Source: Eukaryota sp. GEM-RC1 (Eukaryota). From it: a stretch of DNA of 64,000 nt. A program made the translations under genes and the position numbers. The notes under the pieces were generated by a model that did not search any database, was not told the origin of the DNA, and saw nothing but the letters and a program-made list of their open reading frames with translations. How positions within the stretch are numbered: position 1 is the stretch's first letter; every line of letters starts with the position of its first letter. Below, one piece after another: positions 8,252 through 39,329 of the stretch. The stretch covers positions 1,426,001-1,490,000 of the forward strand of contig JAUFOQ010000017.1 of NCBI GenBank assembly GCA_040285855.1. The letters run 5' to 3'.

Positions 8252-10409
8252 TTGAGCTCTGAACCAATTTTGTCCAAACAATTAGATAATTCTTGAGAAA
8301 TTTTAAGAACATTCCCAAGCCAACATCCTAGAAAACGAAAAGCGCCTTCAACATAATTGATAAATGGAATCTGAACTCCATAAATACATAATTCTTTTGT
8401 AGATCTACCAATTAATAAACATTTGTCTGGGTTCAGAGATAAACCCAATGTTTCATAAATATCAGCCACTTCTACAGCGATCTTTTTAACAATTCAAGGG
8501 GACCAATAATAGAAATATCATCCATATAGCCAACTATCTTAAGGTCTGGGCATTTTTTTAAAATACACAAAAGCGAATCATTGAATAGCCAAACAAAGGA
8601 AAAGAGGACCAAGAGGATCTCCTTGTTTAACACCAGACATAGATTTCAATGAATATGAATCATAAATTAAATCGCTTGGTTTTCGATAAAATAAATAAAA
8701 GTAGGACGTCAACTCAGGAAAGTCTTTTTCAATAGCAGCAAAAACAGATTTACGACTAACTGAATTAAGCGCATTTATGAAATCAAGATTAAAAATGAAA
8801 TTATCATCATGTGAATTGAAAAACAAATCTGATGTTAAGGCAGCAACAGAAGCTCCGTCAATTGTCTTAATTCCAAATTGAAATGGAAACAAAAAGCGAC
8901 CCGCTTTATCGACCACTCGATTAAACACAATTGATGCGAATAAACGAGAAATTGATTCTCCAACTGCAATTGGACGGATTCCATCAGGCTTAATTCCGTT
9001 ACCTGGTTTTACTAAAGCAATAAGTCGAGCAGCAGTCAATTCAATTGGAGGAATGACTTTCAAACAAACCATCTGTTGGAAGTAATTAGCAAGATCTTTA
9101 GAAATTTCTGGAGCTGACTTGCAAGCAGCTACAACAAATCAAATAAAATACCTGAAGGTCCAGCTGCTTTACCTTTAGGAAGTCTAGCAATAGCATTTGC
9201 AACTTCAGTTGGGAAAATAGGATTATCAATCCAGAATTGACAAATTTGAGGTTTAACACACAAAAACTCTTCTTTTGAATGCAATTTGACCATTTTCTGA
9301 ACCGTTTTAGAATTTGGAATAGCCATTGCTGAAGAAAAGATAGACTTAACTCCAGAACCATAACGCCCACGAAGACATAATTTCCGGACCACCTTACTGT
9401 TAGAAAATGATTTAACTTTTTCAGAACTTGATTTCCTCAACATCATTTTGTTCTTTTTAGCAAGAACTTCCAGAACCTCGTGATATTTCACCGGTTCTGG
9501 TTCAGGTTTGACGTAAATGCCTGTAATTCCATAGAAAGAGGAATAGAAGCCGAAGGACTGGATTCAACTGGAATTTTGACTGGACAACGCAAAGAATCGA
9601 TCGTTGTACAGGATTTACAAAAAAGAAGGGGTCTGCCATTAAGCACATCAGTCACAATTTTATGACAAAACGCACAACTAGAAGAATTTTTAGTCGCTGG
9701 TTTTTCTGTGAAGTCACTAACTGAAGCAAGAAGTAATTCAGCGGAATCAAGGTCTTCAGATTTAGGAGTATCAAAGGAGTCAAGATCAAGAGATGATTTG
9801 AGAGAAAAAGAATCAGACTGAAGTTTTAACTGTTCTTCTTGAGCTACTGGACATGTTGTAATATAATGGCCAGACTGGCCACAATTAGAACAACACCTAG
9901 AAGTCTTAATTGGTTTCAATGAAATTTCTTTAACAATTAAATCAGGTTGAACAGAAGGGTCACATGAAGCTTTAAACTTCGAAGAGTGTGAAGCATAAGA
10001 AGAAGAAGAATTAAGACCAACTGATGAATTGAGCACTTTCTCAGCTAAAGGGCTTACAGGAAAAACCGGAATCGTAACTTGATGCAAAGAACGTGTAGAA
10101 GGAGCAGGAGAGTCAGAAAAAACAGCAGACGGCAATTGATCAGAAAGAGAAGGAACATTCAAATTGGAGAAGGACTTTCTCATAACCAATCTATTGGAAA
10201 GTGGAGGATACGGGTTTCGCTGAGACAAAGAAGAAGATAAAGAAGTAACATGAAGAGGAGCAACCAGAGGTCTCGCAGCAGAAAAAGATGATGAAAGAAA
10301 CGAAGCCGACTTACCACTGATACGTTTCACAGGGTCAGGGTTTTTTTGGGAAGATGGCGAGAAGCAGATTTTGGAAGAAAAGTGCCAGAAGGCATGTGGG
10401 AGAAAAAAA

Positions 10410-10454
10410 TTTAAGAGTCATCTGACTTTAAGAGTCATCTGACTTTAAGAGTCA
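10410..10454. repeat. 17-bp tandem/fold-back repeat (TTTAAGAGTCATCTGAC) at the 5' junction of the CRE element
   Basis: About 2.6 copies seen directly. Each unit is the TSD plus an inverted copy of adjacent target sequence. Confidence 0.85.
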
Positions 10455-11737
10455 GGATGTAACATTCTTCTTGGCCTATACTAAGCTGATTGAACACTTC
10501 TTTCCAAAGAGGAAGGTGTAAACGAATACTTTCCAGTTGGACTAGGAGATTCTTTTTCATCGGATTTCAGAGGCACTTCTAGTTCGAGAAGTCGTGAGAC
10601 TTCTGATTGATGACGTGGCAGGCGATGATTGACTGGTATTGTCCACCTTCCCCAATTCTTTTGAATACCACGCAATCAACTCTTGATTCTTCTGATTTTC
10701 TGTTTCTAAAGTTTCAATTTTTGTAGATAATTTTAAAATTTCATCTTTCTGCTCAGAACTTCTAGATCGCTCATTCATCAGATTTTCCTCTAACTCAGTG
10801 ATTCCACTATCTCTACTTCTCACAAGTTGCTCCAACTCTGAAACTCTTCCACGTGCTGCATTTATCTCTGATCGAACTCTCTCAAGACCATCGCTTTATC
10901 CTTGTAATCTAACATTTGCTTCAGTAATGGTTTCTCTAAATATCAGGTTTTCCTTTTCCAAGTGAGTTATCTGCTTTGTCAAGTCTTGCTTCTCTTCTGA
11001 AGAAAAAGACAGGGACTTTTGAGAACCAGAGAGATCGTCTTTAACTTCTTCCAACTAGGATCTAAGAGAACTTAATTGCGATAGAAGACATTCATTACTT
11101 TTGATTTTCTGCTTCCAAAGTTTCAATCTTTGTACATAATTTTAAAATTTAATCTTTCTGCTCAGAACTTCTAGATCGCTCATTCATCAGATTTTCCTCT
11201 AATTCAGTAATTTCACTATCTTTACTCCTCACAATTTGGTCCAACTCTGAAACTCTTCCCCGTGCTACATTTCTCTCTGATCGAACTCTCTCCAGACCAT
11301 CGCTATATCCTTGTAATCCAACATTTACTTCAGTAATGGTTTCTCTAAATATCAGGTTTTCCTTTTCCAAGTGAGTTATCTGCTTTGTCAAGTCTTGCTT
11401 CTCTTCTGAAGAAAAAGACAGTGACTTTTGAGAACCAGAGAGATCGTCTTTAACTTCTTCCAACTAGGATCTAAGAGAAGTTAATTGCGATAGAAGAGAT
11501 TCATTCTCGGTAGTTAACTTGGAGTTTAAAGCTTCTTTTTCAGACAGTTTGGCCTTTAATGATGCAGTTATTGAGCGTAGATCTTCGACACGTGTTTCTA
11601 AATCTAATTGGTGGCGTGATGAAGTGGCAATTTGATCGTTCAATCTTTGGATCGTATCAATACTTTTTTGATTAGAAGAGCTCAGGTGAATTTCCAATTG
11701 AGAGATCTGTCATTGAAGATCAAGAACAAGACTTTCC
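10445..11737 (-). pseudogene. SAS-6-like paralogue B, coiled-coil/C-terminal portion with internal tandem duplication
   Basis: Near-identical to 14105-14535 (inverted) and to part of the 26177-28606 copy. In-frame stops. The ~10710-11095 segment is repeated at ~11100-11500. Confidence 0.8.
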
Positions 11738-11880
11738 AAAGTATTCGTTTAGTCCTACGTCTTTAGAATTATGTCTGAATTCAGCTAAGTATAGGCCAAG
11801 AAGAATGATACGTTCTGATTCGTAGGATATTCTTGGAGTATATTGTGTGTTTTCATGGTTTCAATGTGAGTTGGAAATCA
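11736..11880 (+). pseudogene. 3' end fragment of SAS-6-like paralogue A
   Basis: Matches 18239-18380 (PKYSF.PTSLEL.LNSAKYRPRRM.RSDS stop plus 3' UTR), fused in opposite orientation to the paralogue B fragment. Confidence 0.85.
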
Positions 11881-12080
11881 CTATTTTTTGGCTTTTATTG
11901 GTCTTTATAAAGATTATTTGTGCTTCCTGTTCAAAGGTTAATTCTCTACTTCAGTTCTTGTACTATCAAGAGTAGTTATCAAACCTCTACTTTTAAATAT
12001 ATTTCTATTACATCACTGTCATCAGGTTTCTTCAAGTTCTGTATTCTGAGTTCAGTGTTGACTGATTTACGGTTTTAAAC

Positions 12081-13001
12081 CATACTTGGAAAATACAGAC
12101 ACTCCCTGAAAAAAATACAGAAAATACCAAATTACAGAAAAAACACTTAATACAGAAAAATACAAAATAACTCGACCTAAGATAACTTTCCCAATAGTCA
12201 TGGTGAGAACTTTTTCTGTTTTTTAAAGTAACAATGACAAAAATTATATGGTTTTCACAGCCAAACTAAACATAACAAAACATCAAAAATACCCGAACAA
12301 ATATCAGGAAACCATTATTTAGTTTGCTGTCTTTTTTTGAGCAGCTGCCTTTCCAAAACACTCTTTCAATCATTCCAAAGGTTGAGAATCCCCGAACACA
12401 TCAAGAGAATTGGGTTATTTTTCATCGTCAGACGAGTTTGTGACAACAATATACAATATATTCAGCAAGAAGAACTACTCTACTTGCAATTTATCTTCCA
12501 TAAAACACGGTTGCATATGCTATCTTCATTGTCATCATCACAAACTGCTTCGTTTTCGAGAAGAAGTACATCAACACGAGATCTTTGACCATCATATATG
12601 TGCATACTCATACCTCCATTGGTAGTTAAAAAAAGTTAAACACTAGTGTTACCTGTTTTGAAAAGTTGATGTAAATTAAATTGCGGGTCTAGAGATCTAT
12701 CCAATGTTGCGTGTGAAGGACATTTCGGCCTTTTTGACTCTTAATGGTCCAGATAAGACCAATTGGTGTCTAGTATGTTTCCAAATTACGACCAACACGT
12801 AGATATAGAGAAAATTGAACAGTACATCTTCATCCAAAAATTGTCTTGGTACCATTTTATCCATAAAAATACAGAAAATACAGTATTAATTCAGCATAAC
12901 AAAATTCAAAAAATACAGTATTTATCGAGCCTGGGAAAATGCAAAAAAAGCAAAAAAAGCAAAAATACAAAAAAATACAGTATTTGTATTTTCCAAGTAT
13001 G
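12081..13001. mobile_element. Non-autonomous hAT element (921 bp)
   Basis: Perfect 17-bp TIR CATACTTGGAAAATACA. 8-bp TSD TTTTAAAC/TTTCAAAC. AAAATAC subterminal repeats. Confidence 0.88.
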
Positions 13002-13704
13002 TTTCAAACTACGCTATTCTCCTTAAATGACGTTACTAACATCAATTCTGAAAAACATTGAGAGCGTAATTAAATTTATATCAGCAAACAAAGTTTTAGA
13101 GATGAAAAGAGTTGACTTGTCAATGTCACTAATGTTTCTTGACTTTAAGCTAGTGAATAACTCAGCGCTCACTCCACTATAAGTATCAAGAAGCAATCTT
13201 TACTTTTTCAAGTCAATTAAGTTCAAGTGAATTTAATTTTTGTGTTAAACATTGTATTGAATTACGAATGTGAAAACAATGAGCCTGAAATTGGTTTTCG
13301 TGTATTTCCAATTCTTCTAATGCAGTATACTAACTGAACAATGGTCATTTTTAAAAAATAACCCACTATACAACTATATTACTATACAACTAACTTCTCG
13401 TTCAACTGGGTTGATTTTAGCAAAATTGAGTTTAGTACATTTATAAAAGAATGAGATATTAACAGAGCATTAATTCTGGAAACATTAGTCATACAAACAG
13501 TGTGCAAACTTATGTAAACAGATTTTAAAAGATTTGAACCACCTAGAAACAGCTGAAAAACGGAAAACGGATTTGTATTCCAAAGATGTTGCTAAACTCA
13601 ATCAAATTTTATATTGGTTCCATTTGCTATTTCTATTTTCAATAGTACTGTATTTTTGAAATGACATCTCAGTTTTTAACTCATTTTGGATCTATTTGTA
13701 AGTC

Positions 13705-14545
13705 CAACTATTGGAGTTTAACTTTGCTGATTTTGTTGATCAGATCAACGATCTGCTAATTGCTTGTTGAGGACCGAGATTCTCAACCTTATGTTGAGTT
13801 GGAACTCGGATCGACGTGTCAGCTTTCCTTTATGGGTCGATCTAAAGTTCGCCGTTTTCCTTTACTGTCACTGAATTTGACACGTGGCGAAGGTGCTGTT
13901 TTGGCAGAGTTCCTAGCAGGTAGACTGACTTGTACTACCAAAGATGCTGATGCCAATCAACACCAACTACTGGAACTCCAGCGAGAGTTGAAAAGTAGAA
14001 ACAAACAATACGACTCAATGGTTAACTCTTTCAAACAAGAAATAGACACTCTAAAGTCCAATCATGACACGTCTCTTCAGCAAAATTTTATCCAATTGTT
14101 AGAAAAGGAAAGTCTTGTTCTTGATCTTCAATGACAGATCTCTCAATTGGAAATTCACCTGAACTCTTCTAATCAAAAAAGTATTGATACGATCCAAAGA
14201 TTGAACGATCAAATTGCCACTTCATCACGCCAGCAATTAGATTTAGAAACACGTGTCGAAGATCTACGCTCAGTAACTGCATCATTAAAGGCCAAACTGT
14301 CTGAAAAAGAAGCTTTAAACTCCAAGTTAACTACCGAGAATGAATCTCTTCTATCGCAATTAAGTTCTCTTAGATCCTAGTTGGAAGAAGTTAAAGACGA
14401 TCTCTCTGGTTCTCAAAAGTCACTGTCTTTTTCTTCAGAAGAGAAGCAAGACTTGATAAAGCAGATAACTCACTTGGAAAAGGAAAACCTGTTATTCAGA
14501 GAAACCATTACTGAAGTAAATGTTGGATTACAAGGCTATTCTGAT
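13705..14545 (+). pseudogene. SAS-6-like paralogue B fragment (half of head domain plus coiled coil)
   Basis: LEFNFADFVDQI...LLSLNLTRGEGAVLAEFLAGRL followed by coiled coil. In-frame TGA and TAG are shared with the inverted copy at 11.1-11.7 kb. Confidence 0.82.
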
Positions 14546-14812
14546 TCTAGGGACTCCTTGTTAAACAATTCTAGATTCAAAAGAACCGATATCTGTTGCA
14601 TGTAACGAAATGATGAGAATTACTCTTATCATCCACAAAAACAACTTTGAAAATTAAAATAAATCAAGCTAATAGGAAGAGGTCTTTCTGAACTTAAAGA
14701 GGGTTCGCAGATCTCACGGAAACTAAAAAGAGAAACCCATTTTGATGGAAGTTCCTATGGCAATCAAAGCTTACCATGTAATGACGAACTGACGATCGTT
14801 GATGTGATTATA

Positions 14813-15219
14813 AAGTAAAATATGAAATTGAAGCCCCGGGGGTTGTCCATATAAGCCCCATCTTAAAATCGGCTACTATTACGTGGGGGCTACTATTACG
14901 TGGTGGGGCTTCTCTCTATAAGCCCCTCACCAAATCATGTTCTGAAGTCTCAGTTGTGTCGCATGTAGTGTATTCAATGTCAAAAACAATAAAAACAGTT
15001 ACTCATCAACAACTTAAGAATGAAAGTAAGAGAAACAGTTAATCGTCTTTTTGAATAAATCTTTGAACCGATTAATAAAGATCGATACTTATAAATTATT
15101 TATACCCAGGGGCTACTATTACGTGGTGGGGCCTCTCCGTATAAGCCCCATCCAAAAATCGGCCACTATTGCGTGGGGGCCACTATTACGTGGAGGGGCT
15201 TCAATTTCATATTTTACTT
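14813..15219. mobile_element. pogo/Tc1-mariner-type MITE (407 bp)
   Basis: Perfect 25-bp TIR AAGTAAAATATGAAATTGAAGCCCC with flanking TA. Subterminal GGGGCTACTATTACGTGG repeats. Confidence 0.9.
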
Positions 15220-16146
15220 TAGTTGCCAGGTGTAAATACAGTACATGTTTAGATGCCAATAATGCAGTTTCTCCACTTGTGCTCTAAGAAGAATTTTTCA
15301 AAAAGTAAATACTATGCCCTCTTAACAGCTCTCAAATACACAAAGCTCGTTGTACATCGTCGCAATTATATATTGGAGAAGATATCTTCTAAAGTTTGAC
15401 TTGGTATGGTCCAGATTGCCACTCTGTTTAATAATTCTGAAAACAAAAAAACTCAAAGTAAAAGACATTTGCAGAAGGAAACGTCAGCAATCAGAAGAGA
15501 TCAAAAACACGATAGATGATTGAGAGACAACATGACGTGATGGACAAAGAGCAAGAGGTGGTCAACAGAATCTCCATGAGACTCTGTTGCAGAGAAATGC
15601 TTAAAAGGACGAGGTAAAAGAATATCAGGAAATCCAAACAATACAGTCTTTCTATAGGAGAAACAAAGAATGAAGAATGAGTACACCAACCAACATGGTC
15701 TCAGAAATTAATTAGTTTTCTGTTGTTGGAGGAAAGTTGTGAAGAAGTTCTGGTTGGATCATTTAAGTTGAAGAGAAGAGGAGACATTCAATTGAAGAAC
15801 GAAGGGTTGTCCTCCAAAAGCTGACGTCATCATAGTTGATAAGGAGAGAAAACTGAACAACGCCAAGTTCGAATGTCATCTTTGGCCATGAGACATCTCT
15901 TCATTGCCAAACCAAACTTCATTTCGAAAAGTAACCAGAGAATTCTTCTTCAGAGTTAGATTGGAAGTGTTCAGAAGACCTGAACGCTAGCAAGAATGTA
16001 CCACGTATTGGTCAATAAAGTTCAAGTTATATTGATTTGAGGCCACAAAGTGGTTGTGTTAGAAGACGACGCAAAGGGAACTACATGTACATCATCACCA
16101 CTTGATACAAGAAATGATCCTAAACTCACTAATACTACTAGTAGTA

Positions 16147-16801
16147 CAGTCATCCGTGCCTTGAAATTACAGGAACCTTGAAATTATAGGATCTCTCTAT
16201 CTTCTCAACTACTTTCACTCATGATACTCTCTGTACCTAATAAAACACCAATTCTTCATTGTATTGCTTAGTCCTTCACATGGATCGCACTGATTCGATA
16301 AGTGTCCTTTTCTCGTTGATCTTGTCGTCCGCAAGGGTGTCAATGATGTCCTTTTCGGTGGAATTCATCAACGTAACGTGTAGAGCTGAGTTTGGCATGT
16401 TTCGGACCACGTTCAGCAAGATTTGCGGAAACGAGTACCCAACAATACTACCACAACAACGAAGAAGACGTTTGTGTTGTATAGTTATGTATTTTGGGAT
16501 GTAAGTGGAAGAATCCACCAGTTGAAACGCAGGCAAACGCGAAAACACGATTTATGACACACATAGTAACATCAAACTGACTCTATCAATCATCAGCATA
16601 GCTAGATTGTATTTAGGGAGTTATCAGAACACTAAAGGCTCGAAAACAGGAAATTCCATGTAGACTCATATCAACGTTTCAGAGGATGCACTTAAGTAGT
16701 TCTAGTGGCTGATAGCAGTTATATTAGAGAAAAGTTGTTGATGTTAGAGGTATCGGAAGGGTGTAACATTTTGGGACCTTGAAATTACAGGAACCTGACT
16801 G
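16147..16801. mobile_element. Probable degenerate pogo-like non-autonomous element
   Basis: TA-CAGTCA...TGACTG-TA ends with CCTTGAAATTACAGGA subterminal motifs at both ends. The left TIR is damaged. Confidence 0.5.
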
Positions 16802-16818
16802 TATTCGTCCTCTTTGTC

Positions 16819-18328
16819 ATGACCTTGCCCAAGATTCTGCTGCAATTCACCTTATCTTCTGTGACAATCAAGGCTTCTGCCGATCTTCCCCTTGTAGAAG
16901 GTCCCCTTGTAGTTCGTGTTTTACAACTTCAGCCGTCTCTTCTCCGGATCACAATCACAAGGGATCCACAAGTTGATCCCACTTTCTTCTACTTCTGTGA
17001 TCTTGACAGTCCTTCATTCTCCCTTCTCAAAGACGATCAGCGATTGGAATATGAGTTCGCCGATCTCGTGGACAAGCTCAAATTTCTATTGGCAGATTCT
17101 CAAGACCAACAATCTCCAAGATTTGCGCAGTTGAATTTTGACTCACCTTCTGCGTGTCGGTTTGCTTCTATGTGTAGAACCTCTTTTGTTTCTTACGTTG
17201 AGCTCTCCCTGAACTTAACACGTGGAACTGACTCTGATTTAATCGATTTCTTGGCTGGTAGATTGGCTTTCACCACCAAAGAAGTTGAAAGTTTAAAGAA
17301 TGAACTACTTGAACTGCAACTGGAGCTCAAAAGTAGAAGTAATCGTTTTGATTTAAAGTTGAGCTCATTTAAAGAAGAAATTTCAAGTCTGCAATTAACG
17401 TATGACACTTATCGTCAGCAAAGCTCTAATGAGTTATCAGAAAAGAAAGTCAGTCTCGTGACCTTCAATCACAGGTGTCTCGGTTAGAAACTGAGTTGAG
17501 CACTTCCAATCAAAAAAGCATTTGTATGATCAAATCATTGAATGAGCAACTATCTGATATGTCACGTCATCAATCAGAGTTGCAAACTCATGTTGATCAT
17601 CTACAATCTGATTCACTTTCTTTAACGTCCAAGTTGGCGGACGCAGACGCTTTGAACTGCAAATTAAACAATCAGAATCAAACTCTCCAGTCTCAATTAA
17701 CTTCTGTTAAGTCTAACTTAGAAGAAGCTGAAGCTAATCTGAATAGTTCTCAGGAATCCTTATCTTTTCGATAGAAGAAAACAAAAACTTGAAGAAACAG
17801 ATTTCCACCTTGGAAGATGAAAATGTATTATACAAAGATACAATTAAAGAAGCTAATGTTAGACTCATAGGTTATAGCGATGGACTTAACAGAGTTAGAT
17901 TTGAAAGAGGTGAAGTACGGTCTAGAGTGGCAGAACTTGAAAAGGAAGTTGCTCAAAATGAGATCAAAATCAACGAATTAGGGGATCTCTTGAAGACTCA
18001 ACAAGCGAAAAATTCAGAACAGGAAACCGAAATCTTTACATTACGTTCAAAAGTTCAAAAATTAGAAGATCATGCGCAATCGCAACAACAAGCTATAACT
18101 TGGTATTCGAAAGAACTTGGTAAATTGGATCAACCCAATCAAGGTCAGTCCTCCACGTCACCAATCAGAACTTCTCGAACTAGAAGTGTTTTTGGAGTTC
18201 CTTTGCATTTGGAGGAGAATGAATCTCCAAGTAAGTCCCCAAAGTATTCGTTTAATCCTACATCTTTAGAACTGAGTCTGAATTCAGCTAAGTATAGGCC
18301 AAGAAGAATGGTACGTTCTGATTCGTAG
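16819..18328 (+). CDS. SAS6: SAS-6-like centriole cartwheel protein, paralogue A (full length, two frameshifts at short homopolymers)
   Basis: N-terminal head with SAS-6/PISA-like pattern DP.FFYFCDL....F..LK.DQ.L..EF...  and LSL.L.RG.D..L..FLA, followed by a ~300-aa coiled coil and a Ser/Pro-rich tail. Frameshifts at ~17445 and ~17765. Confidence 0.8.
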
Positions 18329-18912
18329 GATGTTCACGGAGTTTATTGCTTATTTTTATGGTTTCCAATGTGAGTTGGAAAATGTCTTCTATGTATGTTT
18401 AGTTATCAATTTTAATTGTTTCTTTGTGGAGATTTCCCATGTACATTTATAAAAATATGTTCTTTCATTATCCAGACTAGTCAATCCAAGTGTAGTTCTA
18501 CTTTCTCTTTCATCGCTCATTTTTTGGTTTCTATAGTTTCTAAACCCAATGTCTTATAAATAATAGCAACTTTCACTACCTCTGTTTTCAAAAAATCACC
18601 AAGATATAACATGAAAACAACATCTTTGTATTACTAAAGCGAATCATGAATTGCGAAACAAAAAAACTAACAATGAAGATCCCATTGATAGACTGATATA
18701 TTGAACTATAACTTGTATGTTTTTTAATACAGTATTATTTAATAAGAGTTTATATGCAACAATAAATTAATACATACTAATTCAGAAAATGAAAGAAGTT
18801 AAATTCTCCACATCAAGACGAGAATTATGCCTATACAACTTCGAGTAAATGAAACATAAAAACTTGGGAATGCTTCTATAAAGAGCGAACATATTTCGAT
18901 TAATCCATACAG

Positions 18913-19229
18913 CTAATTATTTGAAGGAGTTGAAGATGACACTAATTCTAAAAAATCCTTAACTTTTTCGATAGAAGAAAACAGAAACTTGACGAAACAA
19001 ATTTCCACCTTAGAAGATCAAAATTAATTGTACAAAGATACAATTAAAGAAGCTAATTAGACTCATAGGTTATAGCGATGGCCTTAATAGAGTTAGATTT
19101 GAAAGAGGTGAAGTACGGTCTAGAGCGGCAGAGCTTGAGAAGGAAGTTGCTGATAATGAGATCAAAATCAACGAATTAGGGAATCTGATGATGGTTGAAC
19201 AATCGAAAAATCCAGAACAGGAAACCGAA
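18913..19229 (+). repeat. Left inner inverted repeat (SAS-6 A coiled-coil fragment)
   Basis: Reverse complement of 23335-23653 with both breakpoints shared. By eye about 16 substitutions and a 2-bp indel. Confidence 0.92.
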
Positions 19230-19713
19230 ATCTTCTATATATGTAAATGATCCATTTAAAGTTAGTAAATTTTTATCAATTGATTATCCCAATCTTGAAG
19301 AACTAGAAGCTATAGAAGTAAATCTTTATCATCTTCCTGATAAATTATTTAAATTAATAATAATTAATTGTTCATTTAATAATCTAGCGTATATTCCATA
19401 TTCTTATCAATTAAGGATTCTATCGTGTAAGGGAAATAATTTAACATCAATCAACTATTATGAAAATTTAGAAAAATTAGAATGTGATGGTAATTCATTG
19501 ACATCTATATGTCACTATCCTAAATTGATACACTTGAGTTGTAAATATAATAATATAAGAAATATTGCAAACATGGATAGTTTAAAGAAATTGGAATGTG
19601 ATTTTAATTCCCTATTATATTTAAATGACTACAAAAACTTGGAAGAATTATCATGTAAAGGAAATAAAGTATTAATTCCCGAAATGAAGAAATTAAAACA
19701 AATACGAAAATGA
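19230..19713 (+). CDS. Short-unit leucine-rich repeat protein, 5'-truncated
   Basis: ~20-aa repeats L..L.C..N.L..I (e.g. LEKLECDGNSLTSI). Confidence 0.85.
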
Positions 19714-19728
19714 TTATTAAGTTAATAA

Positions 19729-20760
19729 ATGTTAGTTGCATTCTGTGGTTTAGACTCTACAGGAAAATCAACTGTGGTTTCCCATTTAAATGGTCACAAG
19801 ATTAAACTACCAGATAGGAGAACAGATAGTGGTAAGATAATTGACAAATTCCTTAAAAAAGAAATTCAAATGTCTGAACGTGATGCTCAAATGTTATTTG
19901 CAAAAAACAGAAAAGAAAAGAATGACGAAATTAAGATTGAATTATTAGAACGAGAAATTGTTTTAATGGATAGATGTTGGATTGATGGTGTTGCTTATTC
20001 TCCTCCAGAATCTTTTTACTGGGCATTGAATCAAGCAGAAGGCGAATTAATTCCAGACTTGGTGTTTTATTTCACTGAACAGTATAATCGAGATGATTTT
20101 GGAAAAGAATACTATGACAAAATTAATGTTAGAAAATCATTTGAAAAAATATTTGATTTGATGAATATTGAAGTTATCAGAGTTCCTAGAGCACCTATCA
20201 AGGATGTTGTTTTCACAATTGAAAATCTCATCAATGAACGAAGTAATCAATTATTACAAGAATATGTTCGACTACAAAATATTAAAAGAAAAATCATTGG
20301 AATTGATATGGATGATACTTTATGTGAAACAACAAAACAAATAAGTAAGGATTATCCAGAATTCAAATATGAAACAGATCCAAGTAAATTCCACACTAAT
20401 GGAATAGAAGTATTCTCAACAAAAGGATTCTTTAAAAACTTGGAACCAATTAATAGAATAGTTGATATAACTAAAAAGTTAATTGATGATGAATTTGAAG
20501 TTTATTTCGTAACTGCTGCATATCACAAAATGATTGATTCTGGAATAAGAGAAGAAAAACAAGAATGGCTTGAACAACATTTTCCCGAATTAAATATTCC
20601 TAATCATTTGATTAATATCAATAACAAACAATTGTTAAAATTGGATTTATTAATTGATGATAATGATTGTTATCAATCTAATTACAAGTTTATTAATTCT
20701 AAAGATTTAGAATCATATGAACAAGTAATGAATATTCTATTCGATTGTAGATTTAATTGA
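19729..20760 (+). CDS. Thymidylate kinase fused to NT5C-type 5'(3')-deoxyribonucleotidase (HAD)
   Basis: N-terminal half: P-loop GLDSTGKST, PDR...G..I, MDR...GVAYS. C-terminal half: HAD motif IGIDMDDTL, FF.NL.P, K.EWL..HFP, LLIDD. Intact 343-aa ORF. Confidence 0.9.
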   Translation: MLVAFCGLDSTGKSTVVSHLNGHKIKLPDRRTDSGKIIDKFLKKEIQMSERDAQMLFAKNRKEKNDEIKIELLEREIVLMDRCWIDGVAYSPPESFYWALNQAEGELIPDLVFYFTEQYNRDDFGKEYYDKINVRKSFEKIFDLMNIEVIRVPRAPIKDVVFTIENLINERSNQLLQEYVRLQNIKRKIIGIDMDDTLCETTKQISKDYPEFKYETDPSKFHTNGIEVFSTKGFFKNLEPINRIVDITKKLIDDEFEVYFVTAAYHKMIDSGIREEKQEWLEQHFPELNIPNHLININNKQLLKLDLLIDDNDCYQSNYKFINSKDLESYEQVMNILFDCRFN

Positions 20761-20947
20761 TAAATAATTTTTTTTTTCTTAGGAAATGTCAATCGAGAAT
20801 GCAATAAATAATTTGTGGGATTATTTTCGAAATATAATGACAATACATTTATTTTTACCAGTTTCGAGAATTATATAAATTCAATCAAGTGTAGGAAAAA
20901 ATCTAAACAAGCAGCTATTGATATTTAAAAAAAAATAAAAATCTTTT

Positions 20948-21254
20948 TATCCAATATATATGAAACGAGATCTCCATGTATCTGGAGTTATTACCATGGT
21001 ATTTTTTCCATAATCTGCATTTTTTAAATTATACGTAATGATTGTTTTATTTTGTTTGGTAAAACCATAAAAATCATCAGTGAAAAAATGTGCATTATTT
21101 ATGTACAAGTATTGTAAGAATTTAGGGTTTGAGATATAAATATAGTCGTGGTCAGTTCTTTTGGTTTTGATAAGTATATGATAATGGGATTTGAATAATA
21201 TTTTAGAATTTCGTCAATTATATCATTGTTTCCATGAAGAATGCAAATAGTCAT
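20948..21254 (-). CDS. Small unknown protein, paralogue of 21283-21633 (one homopolymer frameshift)
   Basis: Manual translation MTICILHGNND...IYLSKP(K)RTDHDYIYISNP shares IYL..P.RTDH.YI.I..P and DDF.G with its neighbour. Confidence 0.6.
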
Positions 21255-21282
21255 TTTAATTTGCAAAATAATATGATATACA

Positions 21283-21633
21283 CTATTCTTCTGTTTCCTT
21301 TTCCAATTCTTTAATTATTTTATTGAATTCTTCAAATGTCTTGATTTTGGTTTTCTTTACTCCAAGTTTTAATTTTTCTCCTTTAAACATTTTATGTTTT
21401 ACTTCATTCTCGGTTACAATAACTTTTTTGCAATTTGTCAATCCCTCAAAATCATCATTGCCAAAAATGTAAACTGTATCTGATAACTTTAGAAAGTCAA
21501 TTAAATCTGGAGAAGTAATATGAATATATTGATGATCTGTTCTTGTTGGTGTTTTTAGATAAATTGGCAAAACAGAATCATTGATATATTCAATTCCTTC
21601 AGGAATATTTTCATAAAAGATAAGATAAAGCAT
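21283..21633 (-). CDS. Small unknown protein (~116 aa)
   Basis: Open frame from ATG 21633 (MLYLIFYENIP...) with a tandem paralogue downstream. Confidence 0.7.
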   Translation of the reverse strand: MLYLIFYENIPEGIEYINDSVLPIYLKTPTRTDHQYIHITSPDLIDFLKLSDTVYIFGNDDFEGLTNCKKVIVTENEVKHKMFKGEKLKLGVKKTKIKTFEEFNKIIKELEKETEE

Positions 21634-21682
21634 TTTAATTTCCAAAATACTTATATATATAAAAATGATTTTTCTTTTCGAA

Positions 21683-22973
21683 ATGGAGTGTATTGTATGC
21701 GTCTTAAAATTTACAAAAACTAGGCAAAAATTACTTGTCCTTGTGGAGCTGATATATGTAAAAAATGTGTCAAAGAATTTGAAAAGGAACAAGTGAAATT
21801 AACTTGTATGAGTTGTAAGAATGAATGGACTAATGTTTTTATCAAGGAACATTTTGGTAGTTTATTTTTGAGAAATAGATTAAGACAACAAATTGAACAT
21901 GAATTTGAATTCGAAAAACAACGTTTGCCAGATTTAGTTGAAGAGGCAAAATATAAGTTGGAACAAGAAAACTGCAAAAAGAATTGGATAAAACACACAA
22001 ACTTTCAACTCAATTAGATATTGATTATCATTGTGCAAAGTTTACTATCTTAGATTCTAATACTCCAATTGAAGAGAGAATTAAAGTTTTACAAGGATAT
22101 GATGAATTAAAACAAAAATTTATTAATACTCAAAAAGAACACGAACGTCTTGTTATAAAGTATCGTAGATTACAGCGTGAATATAGAATGATGACAACTG
22201 ATAACGTATCAGAATTTCAACATCCATGTAATGATTGCAATGGTTTTATTGTAGATGGAAAATGTGTAATGTGTGACAAATTATATTGCATGCATTGCTT
22301 GGAAGAAAAACAAAAGGAACATAAATACAATAAAGAAACTTTAGAGACTGTTAGATTGATTAAAAAATCAACTAAACCTTGCCCAAAGTGTAATGTTTTG
22401 ATTCAAAAAATCGATGGATGTAATCAAATGTGGTGTACAAAATGTCATACTACTTTTAATTGGAGTTCATTGGAAATTGTTAGAGGAACCACTCACAATC
22501 CACATTATTTTGAATACTTGAGAAATAATAATGTAGTAATTAGACCTCAACCAAATTGTATGACTATATATGATACTATTGACGCACAATATCGTTTGGA
22601 AGTATATAATGTTCGTGGAAATTATATTGCTGCTAGAACTGCGCCTTATTTAACAATTAATAAATTGGATCGCAATATCACTCATACCATTGGAACAACT
22701 ACAAATAATATAAGAGCTCAAAAGATTAAATACTTGCAAAATAAAATTAGCTTGGACGACTTAAAGGAGTATTATATCAAGAATCGTTTAAAGATAATGA
22801 TGTGGACTGAAATACAAACCTTGTGGGATATTATTAAAGATTTTATCCAAGGACAATTTGCTCAGGAAAGATATCGAGATAGTGTATACATGAATATAAT
22901 TAACGATGCTATTGCATTGTTTAATAAAGATATAGAACTTATTTGCTATAGATTTAATAAAAGAAAGCATTAA
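21683..22973 (+). CDS. RBR (RING-IBR) E3 ubiquitin ligase of giant-virus type, two homopolymer frameshifts
   Basis: MECIVC...ITCPCG..ICKKC...CMSCKNEW, then PCNDCNGF...C..C..YC..C, then TKPCPKC...IQKIDGCNQMWCTKCHTTFNW...HNPHYFEY. Confidence 0.88.
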
Positions 22974-22991
22974 AAGTTACAAATTTTACTA

Positions 22992-23303
22992 TTGGATAAA
23001 AATGAATTATTTTTTTTAAAAAAAATGTTACATTCTTCATCATTAACATCCAACATTTCAGAGTTGATAAAGTTGAAAAAGTATTCAGCTCAAAGACCTA
23101 TTGATAATGATTATGTAGAGAAATTATATAATGAAGCAATGAATTATTTGAAATATGAATCAGGACCATTAATTAGACAATCTATATCTATATGTGAAAT
23201 TGACAATGAATATTTTATCATTGATGGACAACATCGAATAGAATGCTTTAAAAAGTTACTTCAACATGGACATCCTGATTATCAAATAAGTGCTCCGATA
23301 TAA
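22992..23303 (+). CDS. DGQHR-motif (ParB/DndB-like) protein, apparently 3'-truncated
   Basis: QRPID...V..L and IIDGQHR motifs. Confidence 0.75.
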   Translation: MDKNELFFLKKMLHSSSLTSNISELIKLKKYSAQRPIDNDYVEKLYNEAMNYLKYESGPLIRQSISICEIDNEYFIIDGQHRIECFKKLLQHGHPDYQISAPI

Positions 23304-23334
23304 AAATCTATCTTCAAAAATCTAAAAATCAAAA

Positions 23335-23653
23335 TTCGGTTTCCTGTTCTGAATTTTTCGATTGTTCAACCATCAAGAGATCCCCTAATTCGTTGATTTT
23401 GATCTCATTTTCAGCAACTTCCTTTTCAAGTTCTGCCGCTCTAGACCGTACTTCACCTCTTTCAAATCTAACTCTATTAAGGCCATCGCTATAACCTATG
23501 AGTCTAACATTAGCTTCTTTAATTGTATCTTTGTATAATAAATTATGTTTTTCCAAGGTGGAAATATGTTTCGTCAAGTTTCTGTTTTCTTCTATCGAAA
23601 AAGTTAAGGATTTTTTAGAATTAGTGTTATCTTCAACTTCTTCAAATAATTAG
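23335..23653 (-). repeat. Right inner inverted repeat (SAS-6 A coiled-coil fragment)
   Basis: Inverted partner of 18913-19229. Confidence 0.92.
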
Positions 23654-24105
23654 TTAATAAAACAATCTCGATTAATATTGGAAGTACTGCTGAGGATTTT
23701 TGTTATGCCTCTTCAAAATTACATTGTGTCGTGATCAAAGGAACAGCTTTTTCAGACTCTTTGGCACATTCGCATTGCTGTTTCTTTATTAAGAAGTTTT
23801 CCAAAGTATTTGGATCGTATACTGAACAAATTGTATCGTGGTGAAATGAGTTGATGTTGGGCATTTACTATCCTTTAAGTACTGGTATATTAGTATGTGC
23901 GTGTATTTTCTTGATTTGTGTTTATACAATGTATAACTACAATGTATACAAATTGTTAACTTAAAAATCTCGATTAGGTTTTAATATATGTTTGCTATTA
24001 GTGTATTCAAATTTACAACTACTTCCAAATAACTCATTGTTGAGTGTATGAGCAGAGAAAAATAATACTTTTAAACAGCACATAAGTTATAGTTCAATAT
24101 ATCAG

Positions 24106-24253
24106 TCTATGAATGGGATCCTCTTTGTTATCTTTCCTTTTGTTTCGTTATCCATGATTCGCTTTACTGTATTAGAAAAATATATGCAGTCCTTTAAGAG
24201 AGTTTGTTATAAAGATGACGTGTTCATGTTATACCTCGGAGATTTATTGAAAA
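24106..24253 (+). repeat. 148-bp direct repeat, copy 1 (copy 2 at 25763-25910), flanking a CRE insertion
   Basis: Direct alignment shows about 5 mismatches. The homologous site at ~18585-18700 carries a single copy. Confidence 0.9.
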
Positions 24254-25762
24254 AAATTTACAAACCTTTACTTTTTATTGACAATCACACTACAGTGTAC
24301 ATACATCTAATAATCAATATCCTCAAAGTCCAGATTGCCTATCTGGAAATTCTCACCTACCTTATCCTCATAATGTCTGCCGAGAGATAATAAAGCGCTA
24401 GATACAGAAGTCACCATACCTATAAAGATAGCAAACACAATTCGACTTTTCCAAAATCCAAGATCAAAAGTCCTAGATGTTTTTTCTTTTACAATCTTCA
24501 CAACGATTTCAAGTAATGATGTTGCAGATCCACCTAAAGAACCGTACAGTGAAAATACAAAAGGGTACAACAAGTAATTCGAGTGTGAAGCCGAATTCAA
24601 TAATTTCAATTTAGCACAATATTTTTCTTAAGTTTTTCACCAATCAACAGAGGGTTTTCAGCCTTAGATTTAGCAAGTTTCTTGTTGGAGCCATTACAAA
24701 CGTCGATAGACATAACATCAGCAATAATGAAAGAGCCATCGAGACCAGGAAATATGACATCACCTCGGCTATTTCCAAACGATTTGTCAACATCTGTATC
24801 ATCAACCAACCCAGCCAAAACTGGTTCTAAAAAGGAAGTTATTCCATAAGATTTACACATACAATATAATTGATCCCTTACTGAATCATGAACATTACTT
24901 CTAAAAGAAATAAAACGGTTACAATTCAATAGATGTGCAGGTGTTACAGATTGCCCACATTGGCATTTCAAATTATGTGGAAGGTTATCAGGCCAAATAT
25001 ATGACCGTAAACGCATGTTTAATGACCGAGAGTTATCATCAAGAAAAAGACCGTAAACTTGAGGGATTTGAGTAATCAGACATGAAGCAGAGCTATTAGA
25101 AACTTCCGTTAAGAAATTTGCAAAAGCGGGATGTTTTTCCTTGACCAAGCCAAGTCGAACATTATAATCCAAGCTTTCAAAAATATTTGTAAGTTTATGT
25201 TGTAATTTTTTCAGACAGAACTGAAGATTAGTTAAACATCTTTCAGGTATTTCAGACACAGATTCTGGGAAACACTGAGACCAACCGTCAAAAGGTAATT
25301 TGATTAACGCTTCGTTTAAGTCAAATAAATATTTACATGAATTGGGGTTAATAAGTGAAATATCATTAGGAAATCGATTAACAAATTCAAAGATGAAATC
25401 TTTTCCGCCGCCTAAAAAAGCAGATTTGCAAAGAATTGATGATTTGGTAAAACCAATACCACCAAAATGAGCAGCAGTAAACAAATGACTTCTAAGTAAG
25501 GTTGAATCAACTTCTAACAATGAAGCAAAAAATTAATCCTCAACTCGTTAAAAGATCTACAAAAGTTCAGAGCGATTGAAGGAGCAGTAGATCTCAAAAG
25601 ATGTGTGATTTTTCCGGAGTAGCAAATTTTTAAAATAAAAAACTTGTTATGTTTTTCAATATCATATGAAGAAATTGTGTTGAGCTCTGAACCAATTTTG
25701 TCCAAACAATTAGATAATTCTTGAGAAATTTTAGGAACATTCCCAAGCCAACATCCTAGAAA
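24254..25762 (-). mobile_element. 5'-truncated CRE family F1 copy
   Basis: High identity to 1557-2944 plus 8252-8332. Encodes the zinc-finger/RLE C-terminus ending DFEDIDY. Confidence 0.92.
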
Positions 25763-26176
25763 TCTATGAATGGGATCCTCTTTGTTATCCTTTCTTTTGT
25801 TTCGTTATTCATGATTCGCTTTACTGTATTAGAAAAATATATGCAGTCCTTTAAGAGAGTTGGTTATAAAGATGACGTGTTCATGTTATATCTCGGAGAT
25901 TTATTGAAAATCGACGTAAGGAAAGATGCTGTCATTTTTAAACATCGGGTTTGACGCCAAATTCAGACACTATAGAAACCAAATAATGAGTGACGAAAAA
26001 GAATGTAAAACTACACTTGGATTGACTAGTCTGGATAATGAAAGAACATATTTTTATAAATGTACATGGGAAGTCTTCACAAAGAAACATGTAAAATTAA
26101 TAACTAAACATATATAGAAGACATTTTCCAACTGACATTGAAACCATAAAAATAAACAATAAATTCCAGGAACATC

Positions 26177-28606
26177 CTACGAATTAGAACGTACCATTCT
26201 TCTTGGCCTATACTTAGCTGAATTCAGACTTAGTTCTAAAGATGTAGGATTAAACGAATACTTTGGGGACTTACTTGGAGATTCATTCTCCTCCATTCAA
26301 GAAGTTCTGATTGGTGACGTGACGGACTTAGCTTGATTGAGTTGTTCCATTTTACCAAGCTCTTTCGAATACCATGTTATGGTTTGTTGTTGCATTTCAT
26401 TATTTTCTTCTAATTTTTCAATTTTTGAATGCAATGTTAAGATTTCGGTTTCCTGTTCTGAACTTTTCGATTGTTCAACCTTCAGGAGATCCCCTAATTC
26501 GTTAACTTTGGTCTCGTTTTTCTGCAACTTCGTTCTCAAGCTCTGCCGCTTTAGACCGTGCTTCCCCTCTTTCAAATCTAACTCTATTAAGGCCATCTCT
26601 ATAACCTATGAGTCTAACATTAGCTTCTTTAATTGTATCTTTGTACAATAGATTATGTTTTTCCAAGTTGGAAATCTGTTTCGTCAAGTTTTTGATTTCT
26701 TCTATCGAAAAGATAAGGATTCCTGAGAACTATTTAGATTAGCTTCAGCTTCTTCTAACCTAGACTTAACAGAAGTTAATTGAGACTGGAGGGTTTGATT
26801 CTGATTGTTAAATTTGCAGTTCAAAGCTTCTGCTTCTGTCAACTTGGAGGTTAAGGAAAGTGAATCAGATTGAAGATCATCAACACGTGTTTGCAACTCT
26901 GATTGATGACGTGACATATCAGATATTTGATCTTTTAACCTTTGGATCGTGTCGTTGATTCTTTGATTAGAAGAGCTCAGGTGAGTTTCCAATTGAGAGA
27001 TCTGTGATTGAAGATCAAGAACAAGACTTTCCTTTTCTGACAATTGTATAGAACTTTGCTGAAGAGACGTGTCATGATTGGACTTTAGAGTGTCAATTTC
27101 TTGTTTGAAAGAGTTAACCATTGAGTCATATTGTTTGTTTTTAGAGAAATTACCCTAAAACAAAGTTTTTCAAACCTGAGTTCCAAAAAAAAAGTTTCTG
27201 AAAACCCCGAAACATTGTCTTCATCATTTTTGCAAATCACCCTTAATCTTCAGAAAAGTCCCAGCACCATTGTGAAAGATGGATACTTTCAGCAACAGAT
27301 TGGAGCTTAAAGCTGCTTTATGCTGCTTGTGAATCAGAGGATGATCATCATCTCACAAAAACATATATTCCTCACTCTAAACGATGTATGGCCCCTTAAA
27401 GTGTCTTTTCCCTCTAAAGTTGCAGGTTTTGTTCTTCAAGAATATTTTCACACAGAGGGAATCACTTCGCTCGGTAAATTGTGCAAAACAAGCGTTATGA
27501 ATTCAACGTGGGAACGGGCAGATTCAATACAGAATCTTTGAACTCTTATGTGTGTTGAACTCACGTAAAAACACAGTATCTGGGTGCCATTCTTATTGCA
27601 ACATTGACAGGACATAAGAGAAAACGATGTCCCTAAAAAGATGGAGTCAGCTAGTTGTAGTTGGTATATGATGCGTTTTAGTGATATAAAAGACTTTTAT
27701 TTGCCAGAGCATAAGAAAAATAGGGGGCTGCAATCCCATCAACTCCATACTGCTCCCCTCACGATAAGGATGATAGTGTGAGAAAAGAGATGTAGAGGAG
27801 GGGAGATATATGTATAAACCCAATACTTCCCGATCTCTCTCCAATGATAAGACTGAAAGTGAAAGAAGCATGTTGTCAGGTGGTGTGATCTTAATGTGTG
27901 TCTCTCTAGAAGAGGTGGTACAAGATTTGTTGCATGTCGAACTTTATGGCCGATACGTAAACAGTACAAAGTTTGGAGAGGTTTGGAAACTTTGTTTTGG
28001 GGCAATCCTCCAAAAAAAACTTTGTTTTTGGGAAATAAAGGTTTGAGAAACTTTGTTTTTGGAACTCAGGTTTGAGAAACTTTGTTTTTGGGCGAAGTCT
28101 CTTGTTTTTACTTTTCAACTCTCGCTGAAGTTCCAGTAGTTGGTGTTGATTGTCTTCCACTTCTTTTGTAGTACAAATCAGTCTACCTGTCAGGAATTCT
28201 GCCAAAACAGCACCTTCGCCACGTGTCAAATTCAGTGACAGTAGAGGAAAACGGCGAACTTTAGATCGACCCATAAAGGAAAGCTGACACGTCGATCCGA
28301 GCTCCAACTCAACATAAGTTTTAGAATCTTGATCCTCACAAGCAATTAGCAGATCTTTGATCTGATCAACAAAATCAGCAAAGTTAAACTCCAAAAGTTG
28401 GTTTTCCTGAAGGAGGCCAAAAAAGAGTCAAGTTTGCAAAAGCACATAAACATGGGATCAACTTGAGGACCCCGAGTTATGACAAGGCGGATCGAACTGT
28501 CATCTTGTAGAAGGCGGACGATGAGAAGATCGGCAACAGAGGAACCTTCGCCTGAGGTTTTGACCGTACAAGTAGTCAAATTGCGTTCCAGAAGAATATT
28601 GGACAT
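26177..28606 (-). pseudogene. Chimeric SAS-6-like gene (paralogue B head, paralogue A tail) disrupted by a MULE insertion
   Basis: ATG 28606 MSNILLERNL...PQVDPMFMCFC...LEFNFADFVDQI. Sequence switches from B-type to A-type near 26930 and ends YRPRRMVRSNS. Confidence 0.82.
27144..28101. mobile_element. Non-autonomous Mutator-like element (958 bp)
   Basis: Perfect 9-bp TSD TTGTTTTTA (27135-27143, 28102-28110). Imperfect ~60-bp TIRs starting GAGA with AAAACAAAGTTTCTCAAACC sub-repeats. Removing it restores KSKNKQYDSMVNSF. Confidence 0.9.
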
Positions 28607-30360
28607 GGTTGTTAAGAACAAGCTAGAGCGACTATTACAATTCCATCTTCACTCTTTCGTTTGTGACGTTCTTTTCTTCCTGCTTGTGGGCAGATTGTAA
28701 TGGTTGTGTCTACTCTCATTCTTCATCCCTTCCAATTCAAGTGCGTCATTCTTTTAATTACTGAAATACGAAGTGCCAATACATTATTTCACATCTATTT
28801 GATTATTCTATATCATTCTGATAATATATATCAATCATCTGTCTTTAGGAAAAAAAGTCATTTCCTTGAAATGTCATGGTTTCTTCTAGTTGCTGAACGT
28901 TTAGTTCTTGAAAAGTCTTCACTATGTCATGTTCATATCCTTGAAATCACGTGCTTCAATGACATCATGTTGAAGAATCAGAATCTTGGAATTGATACAA
29001 ACTTCATCGACTCAGCTTTCGAAACTCAGCTTCCTACCAAAGGGATTCTTCCTCCAGATGTCTGATGTCGTTCATCTTCAGTTGGATAGGCTCGTTGTGC
29101 TATTGATGCTGATCTACTCCAATAACATGACTCTAAACTCTCCACGTTCAGCCATTCTTTGTGGATTATGAACCTCGAGTTGTTGCTAAGCTCCCAAACT
29201 CCCTTCCCAAAATAGTAATCCTTCTTTATCACGTCATCAATCACCGGGGGGTACCGGGGGTGGTCTTTTATCAGGAATCCTTTCTCACCCAGAGTTTTCC
29301 TTTAAATGTAACTTGTAATGTTGTTGTCCTTTTGGTAAAGACATCACTTCCTCTTTGATTGCTTCTCATCTATGTTACCAATGACTTAGTAGACAACTTT
29401 CTCTTTATTAACAGTGGTTTTCTATTTGATGAGAACTTTAGGAATTCGAAAAGGTTGTTTGGATCTCAAACTAAGAGTAATTGTAGCTTATTTCATTCAA
29501 TTATTCGGAATTTTGCTGTTATCATAGCCTTAGTATTGGGTCACGAAATATTTCAAATTATTCGAGAATTGATTCTGCGTGTTTAAGGTCCAGTATCTTT
29601 GCTTTGAATTCTTGTCATTATTCAACAAATTTAATCTTTTTCTTGGTTGTTTTTTCGGTTTCTACTATCCTTGAATCTCTTGATGAATTAGAAAGCCTTA
29701 CAACAATTGTCCAAGAAACATTTATTGTTAGTCTTGTTTTACAAGTGCAACTATAACCGAAACTCATACGCCAAATTGATTTTTTTGTGATCAGGTTACC
29801 ATTTGTGTACCGAATAGAGACTCTTCATATGCAAGGACTACAAAGGAAAACTTACCTGTATTTGGAAAAGTATCCTTACTGTAATATACTTACAAATGTA
29901 GTTGTATTATAGATGTACTCGTGTCGTGGTTGTCGTGATGACGTGGTATCTTCTATGTAAAAACAGGTCGGTATATTTTTCCATCCCTGAAATAACTAAC
30001 AAGTAAGTGTTCGTGGTTCCATTCGGTGTCTTTTAGAAAGGTTTGTATGAGGAAAGTTCTTTGGGATAGTATGATGTTAACATAGAAATAACATCAAAAT
30101 TTGAAGCCAACATTGACTGACAGTGATGTCGTTATCATTGGAAGATTCTCCATGCAATAATGCGTGTCCTCAACACAAGTTCTAGTGATGAGCTCAAGTT
30201 CTAGTGATGACCTCAAATCTTCATCTATAGAGAAATCCCTAAAAGATAATAATGGAGTATGGTTCAATGTAAATGAGACGCTGTAATGACTTTGAAGGGA
30301 ATACTAGAATACAGTATCTGCTTGATAAAACGGTTTGAATGAGAAAAGTTCGAATCAAAA

Positions 30361-38723: not shown

Positions 38724-38769
38724 TTGTAAATTGTTAGTCCGCTTTACACTTTTTTTTACGTTTTTAATT

Positions 38770-39312: not shown

Positions 39313-39329
39313 TCAATGAGTATTCACAT

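Follow-up and report, generated by a model that had tools for sequence, protein, structure and literature searches.

Probable giant-virus DNA between inverted SAS-6 fragments in a chromosome of Eukaryota sp. GEM-RC1

How does a compact group of AT-rich genes come to lie in the chromosome of a flagellated eukaryote, and what is its source? The question is raised by a stretch of 64,000 nucleotides from Eukaryota sp. GEM-RC1 (GenBank assembly GCA_040285855.1, contig JAUFOQ010000017.1, positions 1,426,001 to 1,490,000; hereafter the window, numbered from its first letter), in which six closely packed genes occupy an AT-rich block of 4.1 kb (19235-23334). A preliminary description, made from the letters alone, had proposed an endogenous Nucleocytoviricota-like fragment. 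According to the analysis reported here, the block is probably a non-autonomous piece of an AT-rich giant virus (Nucleocytoviricota) from a lineage not yet sampled, and would likely have been integrated recently, patched into a Skoliomonas-type chromosome during break repair between inverted pieces of the SAS-6 gene. The genes of the block are as follows.

19247-19713, + strand: leucine-rich-repeat (LRR) gene (Pfam LRR_4, PF12799, E 3.9e-7)
19729-20760, + strand: fusion of thymidylate kinase and NT5C-type 5'(3')-deoxyribonucleotidase, intact, 343 amino acids
20947-21254, - strand: orphan gene A, a paralogue of orphan gene B, with a frame switch near 21200
21283-21633, - strand: orphan gene B, an open frame of 116 amino acids
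21683-22973, + strand: giant-virus-type RBR/Ariadne-like ubiquitin ligase gene, with frame switches at the A runs 21726-21730 and 21968-21971
23002-23334, + strand: N-terminal third of a ParB/DGQHR-HNH gene (ORF6), open frame 22974-23303, cut at the right junction

The block stood apart from its surroundings in composition. Its guanine plus cytosine (GC) content was 0.261 compared to 0.369 for the remaining window (36.2% for the window as a whole), and the lowest value among 510 other 4.1-kb windows was 0.336, in agreement with the sharp drop first described; the contrast is reduced by retrotransposon remnants, themselves AT-rich (27-31% GC), directly outside the inverted arms that border the block. 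GC content at third codon positions (GC3) ranged from 0.16 to 0.24 over seven insert frames and from 0.27 to 0.44 over 15 host frames. On a leave-one-out codon score the two sets separated completely, all seven frames of the one lying opposite all 15 of the other, while scores near zero were obtained for two of five transposon frames. A T-A(3-5)-TG context was found at the candidate starts of all six block genes and at none of seven host starts. The tight packing noted previously was evident in a coding density of 92% over the six frames. The genes are indeed intronless, as had been remarked, but this has no diagnostic value, as all six host open reading frames (ORFs) that were looked up also correspond to single uninterrupted NCBI proteins. 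Four insert ORFs looked up by exact match were absent from the protein collection, an Rfam scan found nothing in the block and a single tRNA (at 30361) in the window, and a hairpin in the 186-bp convergent gap was no more stable than shuffled sequence.

The source of the block was indicated by the ligase gene and ORF6. All three motifs by which the ligase had been recognised (MECIVC, TKPCPKC and HNPHYFE) were found in the gene. It has 863 relatives, the best 120 of which score 112-139 bits and are mostly unnamed metagenomic and viral proteins, compared to 37.7 bits for human ARIH2; no match to the family was found in phages. Relatives are encoded on 76 viral contigs, 37 of which carry names beginning with GVMAG, which we take to mean giant-virus metagenome-assembled genome (MAG). 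When 54 of the 84 long ORFs from six viral loci bearing RBR or kinase matches were scanned, giant-virus-type genes were identified beside the match in five of the six: VLTF3 in L002, capsid and polB in L004, and RNA polymerase or poly(A) polymerase in L068, L077 and L078. L001 yielded ribonucleotide reductase only.

The gene shares with the giant-virus RBR family (Iridovirus CN01 UPA43835.1, Cherax quadricarinatus iridovirus 088L and the GVMAG loci) an N-terminal RING-like cysteine cluster, an IBR-like cluster and a RING2 block of the form KPCPKC...GCxQMWC...HNPHYF. It differs from them in that identity over long stretches is at most about 35%, in forming a long branch outside any supported group of a 103-row tree, and in the loss of an invariant cysteine. 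The codon at 22326-22328 specifies tyrosine where 120 of the 120 listed relatives have cysteine, so that the IBR-like zinc site is not intact; the change reflects either early decay or a residual base error. In RING2, GCNQMWC aligns with GCNHMQC of ARIH2, the cysteine of GCN being presumably the catalytic one, and the RING2 cysteines match those of all 120 relatives. The predicted catalytic cysteine and zinc ligands of the RING2 of this putative RBR E3 ligase are thus retained.

A profile built from 22 relatives (334 positions) matched ORF6 with an E value of 1.4e-17 at positions 35-113 only, and two thirds of the gene, including the HNH nuclease part, are therefore judged to be missing at the junction. 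A word search with ORF6 found no longer relatives and a pattern scan of viral contigs no match; longer relatives were later reached through viral locus L029, where a 339-amino-acid protein with a C-terminal HNH domain adjoins an RBR gene. Over 12 kb of this locus (8253-19818), a ParB/DGQHR-HNH gene and an LRR gene accompany two RBR-like genes, which is also the combination seen in the block. The best relative adjoins genes for topoisomerase II and the poly(A) polymerase regulatory subunit, and DUF5906 and FNIP repeats were also found near the best relatives (29 of 49 neighbouring ORFs scanned). The scans made yielded no Pfam model spanning the family from end to end. The ESM Atlas returned ParB-like clusters for ORF6 at 0.95, and its structure model had a predicted local distance difference test (pLDDT) value of 43.5. 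A weak member of the family (L126) is bacterial. Among 185,579 prokaryote genomes the sole full-length match was a 2.4-kb MAG contig, no full-length match was found in phages or plasmids, and a phage search with three block genes found none. The 2.4-kb contig (L128, match at 521-1399) was binned in a Gammaproteobacteria MAG and carries a full-length member of giant-virus type; it is likely a misbinned viral contig.

On sequence comparison, the ligase and ORF6 are thus assigned to families found in giant-virus contigs. Together with GC content and codon usage unlike those of the host, these relatives support the viral origin first proposed, and neither composition nor best matches pointed to the bacterial or host-eukaryotic source that would have contradicted it. 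When 3,408 ORFs from the viral loci were compared to the window, every match but one fell within 19-23.3 kb, the exception being a ThiF match to the host gene UBA1.

The LRR and kinase genes are compatible with a giant-virus origin. The best match of the LRR gene among 2,976 ORFs from fetched viral loci was in L068 (E 5e-15), while a pattern scan of viral contigs found none. Its open frame runs from 19192 to 19713; because the ATG at 19247 (TAAATG context) lies in another frame, we infer a one-base slip within 19250-19275. Truncation of the gene at its 5' end was considered and dropped, as this ATG stands in the typical context of the block 12 bp inside the junction. Both domains of the fusion were identified with Pfam (PF02223, E 1.6e-15; PF06941, E 2.3e-12); the P-loop and HAD motifs are retained, the kinase half is of the eukaryote/giant-virus type and the locus is annotated as a gene. 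The kinases grouped with low-GC GVMAG kinases with a support of 96 in a quick tree and of 92/88, unstarred, under a mixture model with 32 selected rows.

The fusion was searched against 1.84 billion representative proteins, of which only two scored above 77 bits. The first, P9112_013379 (KAL0226055.1; 329 amino acids) of Eukaryota sp. TZLM1-RC, is the sole full-length relative, with both domains and 53% identity. The second, GEMRC1_001214 (KAL0252002.1; 99 amino acids), is from Eukaryota sp. GEM-RC1 itself and is 91% identical over 97 amino acids. They lie on contigs of 4.04 and 3.98 Mb respectively, while that of the window measures 1.84 Mb, and are therefore loci separate from the window. 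The fraction of FYMINK residues was 0.40 in the TZLM1-RC protein and 0.39 in the fusion of the window, compared to 0.23-0.29 in host proteins; this AT-type make-up is weak evidence for a second unameliorated viral gene. The divergent TZLM1-RC sibling likely represents a separate integration by a related virus, and the copies in two genomes labelled as Skoliomonas lend support to the earlier suggestion of an unknown virus of this protist lineage. No match was obtained in a pattern scan of metagenomes for the fusion or in NT5C pattern scans of viral contigs and of prokaryote genomes, no NT5C domain was present in any of 10 longer or two-stretch kinase matches scanned, and no literature report of such a fusion in giant viruses was found.

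The two orphan genes carry no information on origin. They are 41% identical over 46 amino acids (E 2.5e-7). No convincing family match was found for orphan A in Pfam, PHROGs, NCBIfam or the viral-locus ORFs, an ADDB_N/AddB match being discarded as weak and far under the cut-off. Orphan B (structure model pLDDT 39.1) had no relative in viral contigs, the ESM Atlas or the viral-locus ORFs.

The fragment appears to be young. There was no in-frame stop in the 3,624 coding bases of the block, and in 400 simulation runs with random neutral change per site the probability of finding none was 17% at 1% change, 3% at 2% and 0.5% at 2.5%. On account of the missing stops and the unameliorated codons, neutral change since integration was likely under 2%. 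The recent date first suggested is thus supported by these two observations, whereas the homopolymer frameshifts mentioned alongside it carry no information of this kind. Frameshifts as a sign of decay were rejected: slips at homopolymers break the frames of UBA1, an essential host gene, and of the SAS-6 copy next to the block as well, and those in the block are therefore likely sequencing slips. UBA1 itself (52816-55855) is broken into three frames at A/T runs; this would be due to uncorrected long-read errors, and many gene models of the assembly may be damaged. Published Skoliomonas assemblies are described, in the part of the text available, as Nanopore-based (10.1101/2023.05.03.539051).

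The host genes of the window are those of a flagellated eukaryote, and the block is flanked on its 1.84-Mb contig by the eukaryotic genes SAS-6, a TPR gene (which we take to be BBS8), TSR1 and UBA1. The strain names TZLM1-RC and GEM-RC1 are tied, in the portions of the sources available, to Skoliomonas, a genus of haloalkaliphilic anaerobic metamonads, and Skoliomonas genomes have a GC content of 35.8-36.9% (PMC11316075), a range that includes the window. On the basis of the labelled siblings, the matching GC content and the flagellate-type genes, the host is likely Skoliomonas, and the donor virus likely infects anaerobic flagellates of this type.

Neither the inverted arms at the borders, the cut in ORF6 nor the fusion of kinase and nucleotidase had been part of the preliminary description. 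The features that border the block are as follows.

16783-18740, + strand: host SAS-6 paralogue a with its 3' flank (PF16531, E 8.5e-10)
18741-18912, - strand: decayed 3' end of a CRE-like non-LTR (long terminal repeat) retrotransposon, cut at the left arm
18913-19234, + strand: left inverted arm, a SAS-6 coiled-coil coding fragment with a stop and a 2-bp deletion
23335-23653, - strand: right inverted arm, the same part of SAS-6 as in the left arm, here with an open frame (23329-23649)
23654-23935, + strand: degraded 3' end of a CRE-like element, matching the left remnant in inverted orientation
24060-27154, - strand: host SAS-6 paralogue b and 3' flank, split by a CRE-like fragment

The arms measure approximately 320 bp and are 94% alike; their inner ends lie within about 5 bp of the same point of the gene and their outer ends at the same point. 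Each is 88-91% alike to the SAS-6 copies at 17744-18036 and 26439-26732, the values for the left arm being 88-89%. Nine sites are common to both arms and absent from both flanking paralogues, compared to three and three for the other groupings, and on this account a third SAS-6 paralogue was probably the template of the arms. The arms differ by 16 substitutions, of which at least nine are found in the left arm alone and at most one in the right alone, and six sites are shared with the paralogues; dating by arm divergence was rejected for this reason. The retrotransposon 3' ends outside the arms, whose family name CRE is our assignment from motifs, point outwards. The left remnant was identified by weak tblastn and DNA alignments to copies at 33753-34244 and 37984-38733, and the right remnant aligned to the left with a score of 123, compared to a maximum of 107 in 300 shuffles. 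Further out, 17364-18630 matches 25865-27113 in inverted orientation (83.6%), an older and larger inverted pair. With arms, outward retrotransposon ends and older SAS-6 pair arranged in this order, the block reads as the centre of a nested palindrome. No further arm-like copies with the same ends were found within the window, and no target-site duplication abuts the arm ends.

Break repair at this site could have proceeded as follows. Viral DNA would have entered the nucleus during infection or after phagocytosis. The inverted SAS-6/retrotransposon cluster may have formed a fragile palindrome, or repair synthesis may have copied a SAS-6 paralogue onto both ends, the arms being in the first case a pre-existing inner palindrome and in the second a product of the synthesis. 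End-joining would then have captured a random 4.1-kb viral piece, cut inside its last gene, which could neither replicate nor be packaged and in which decay would have begun with the loss of the zinc-ligand cysteine from the ligase. In the donor virus, the kinase and nucleotidase may have controlled dTMP/dNMP pools, the RBR ligase may have served to manipulate host ubiquitin and the ParB-HNH protein to cleave DNA.

Several observations weigh against this interpretation. There is no hallmark gene in the block, as had been noted for capsid and polB, so the viral call rests on accessory families: seven hallmark-type viral-locus proteins (A32 not among them) gave no tblastn match under E 0.05 in the window, where capsid, polB, VLTF3, RNA polymerase and topoisomerase all went unmatched. 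Two of the six genes are orphans, most of the top protein matches are unnamed, and no virus family can be named from the unplaced branch of the ligase. Members of the ParB-HNH family were fetched with patterns taken partly from the window's own gene, and the NT5C half of the fusion has no close relative in any collection scanned. The kinase is ambiguous: its tree partners are compositionally biased and were fetched with patterns from the query, and a Plasmodium kinase scored 70.7 bits (phmmer) compared to 64.7 for the best viral-contig kinase, so that by itself it proves nothing on origin. The history of the arms is not simple, given the lopsided private changes and the paralogue-shared sites. 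Finally, the host genus was drawn from two labelled siblings and a matching GC content, not from host genes.

A mobile origin of the unit was also weighed. In this explanation the 4.7-kb unit would be a non-autonomous cassette: the SAS-6 arms would serve as its terminal inverted repeats, and a transposase of the host would copy it, viral cargo included, to other places in the genome. The shared end points of the arms, the nine sites that both flanking paralogues lack and the 91% identical kinase on another contig (3.98 Mb compared to 1.84 Mb) would fit such a cassette, as would a 433-amino-acid open frame at 6808-8106; this resembles DUF659, a domain we take to be typical of hAT-like transposases, but weakly and below the Pfam cut-off. 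A 16-17-bp direct repeat was also found 7-8 bp outside each arm (P about 0.0002-0.026, depending on the null and window size). It was rejected as a target-site duplication: the repeat is offset from the arms, both copies lie inside oppositely oriented retrotransposon remnants, and the homology runs through. The arms consist of coding sequence from a gene that has copies 1-3 kb away, and the cargo breaks off within a gene where it meets the junction; the cassette is accordingly considered unlikely. No integrase or transposase was found among the block genes with Pfam, PHROGs or NCBIfam. A broader proposal, in which skoliomonads (free-living soda-lake anaerobes) host an AT-rich giant-virus lineage marked by the kinase-nucleotidase fusion and integrated repeatedly in different species, with the 4.7-kb unit moving as a cassette with SAS-6-derived terminal inverted repeats, is doubtful, and we give it a small chance.

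Retention of an old transfer by the host is quite unlikely. The fusion would have entered an ancestor of Skoliomonas once and be expressed for nucleotide salvage, with the other genes hitch-hiking. Its intact frame with conserved P-loop and HAD motifs, its annotation as a gene and its full-length TZLM1-RC relative at 53% are what this predicts; a GC3 of 0.18 compared to 0.27-0.44 for the host, a viral-type start context and a GEM-RC1 sibling model that ends at 99 amino acids are not, and no TZLM1-RC relative of the ligase was present among its best 120 matches of 185-592 amino acids.

It is very unlikely that the block is an assembly chimera, with DNA of a live virus in the culture joined into a host contig via the SAS-6 repeats. 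Open, unameliorated frames, a repeat-rich site and long-read-type slips in the assembly would all be expected of such a join. A mis-join would not, however, create arms of only 320 bp with 16 mutual substitutions and approximately 10% divergence from both neighbours; the contig is 1.84 Mb long, the ligase lacks a cysteine kept in 120 of 120 relatives, and two further eukaryote contigs, each several megabases long, carry siblings. That the genes came from bacteria, phages or the eukaryotic host is highly improbable and already largely refuted. NT5C and DGQHR domains are widespread among bacteria and phages, the kinase is of eukaryotic type and the LRR gene is uninformative; on the other side, phages gave no match to the RBR family or to the full ParB-HNH layout (the latter was seen once in prokaryote genomes), sigma-70 promoters were not in excess (34 compared to 35.4 expected) and codon use is unlike that of the host.

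Read as a captured piece of viral DNA, the block may be compared with systems described elsewhere. Degraded giant-virus islands of Acanthamoeba castellanii are described, in the part of the source available, as small gene clusters among repeats, made up of orphans and viral-type genes, with shifted GC content, few introns and neither a full hallmark set nor mobility genes (PMC12210455); these have no terminal inverted repeats at their borders and named donors (Medusavirus, Pandoravirus), whereas the block has host-gene-derived inverted arms, an unplaced donor and a likely metamonad host. Giant endogenous viral elements of Euglena, Chlamydomonas and Ectocarpus are likewise Nucleocytoviricota DNA in a protist chromosome, but are, as far as the accessible text of the sources goes, large and in some cases reactivatable (PMC12455990, 10.1101/2024.09.03.611062, PMC13236599), while the block is 4.1 kb in length with no core gene and could not give rise to virions. 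It is neither a complete or reactivatable endogenous giant virus nor a Polinton; the unit measures 4.7 kb, and none of its six genes matched the protein-primed polB, integrase or double-jelly-roll capsid families of Polintons and Polinton-like elements. The egoviruses of Parabasalia similarly link nucleocytoviruses to Metamonada through viral genes in host genomes, but concern gut parabasalids and ciliates and include core genes, a comparison made here by description only; Skoliomonas and Barthelona are not mentioned in the available part of the main text (10.1101/2024.03.23.586382). No literature report of viruses in skoliomonads, free-living fornicates or other free-living metamonads was found, although paper supplements may list such genomes, and the words 'virus' and 'viral' occurred 0 times in the available main text of the Skoliomonas genome paper.

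Small giant-virus fossils are common in protist genomes and the class is not new; what this locus adds is a likely new host group and a donor far from every sampled virus. As the fusion is known only from these genomes among the 1.84 billion representatives, it provides a ready marker with which larger inserts, or the free virus, could be sought in cultures of Skoliomonas and in soda-lake metagenomes. With inverted arms derived from a host gene, the locus also allows the capture of viral DNA at a palindrome to be put to the test.

The remaining observations concern the surroundings. The region 10446-28621 contains, in both orientations, five or more SAS-6-like copies or fragments that are 65-98% alike in pairwise comparison. 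Such a local expansion is unusual for a centriole gene that is normally present in a single copy. The CRE-like fragment that interrupts paralogue b (24254-25762) lies between 148-bp direct repeats (97%; 24106-25910), far longer than the usual target-site duplication, and further CRE-like fragments were located at 1516-2945, 38762-39406 and 46453-47373. A 1.1-kb unit at 3588-4686, in which 136-bp direct repeats (99%) surround a lone zinc-knuckle frame (3724-4509), has the appearance of a young LTR element with gag alone, or of a deletion derivative.

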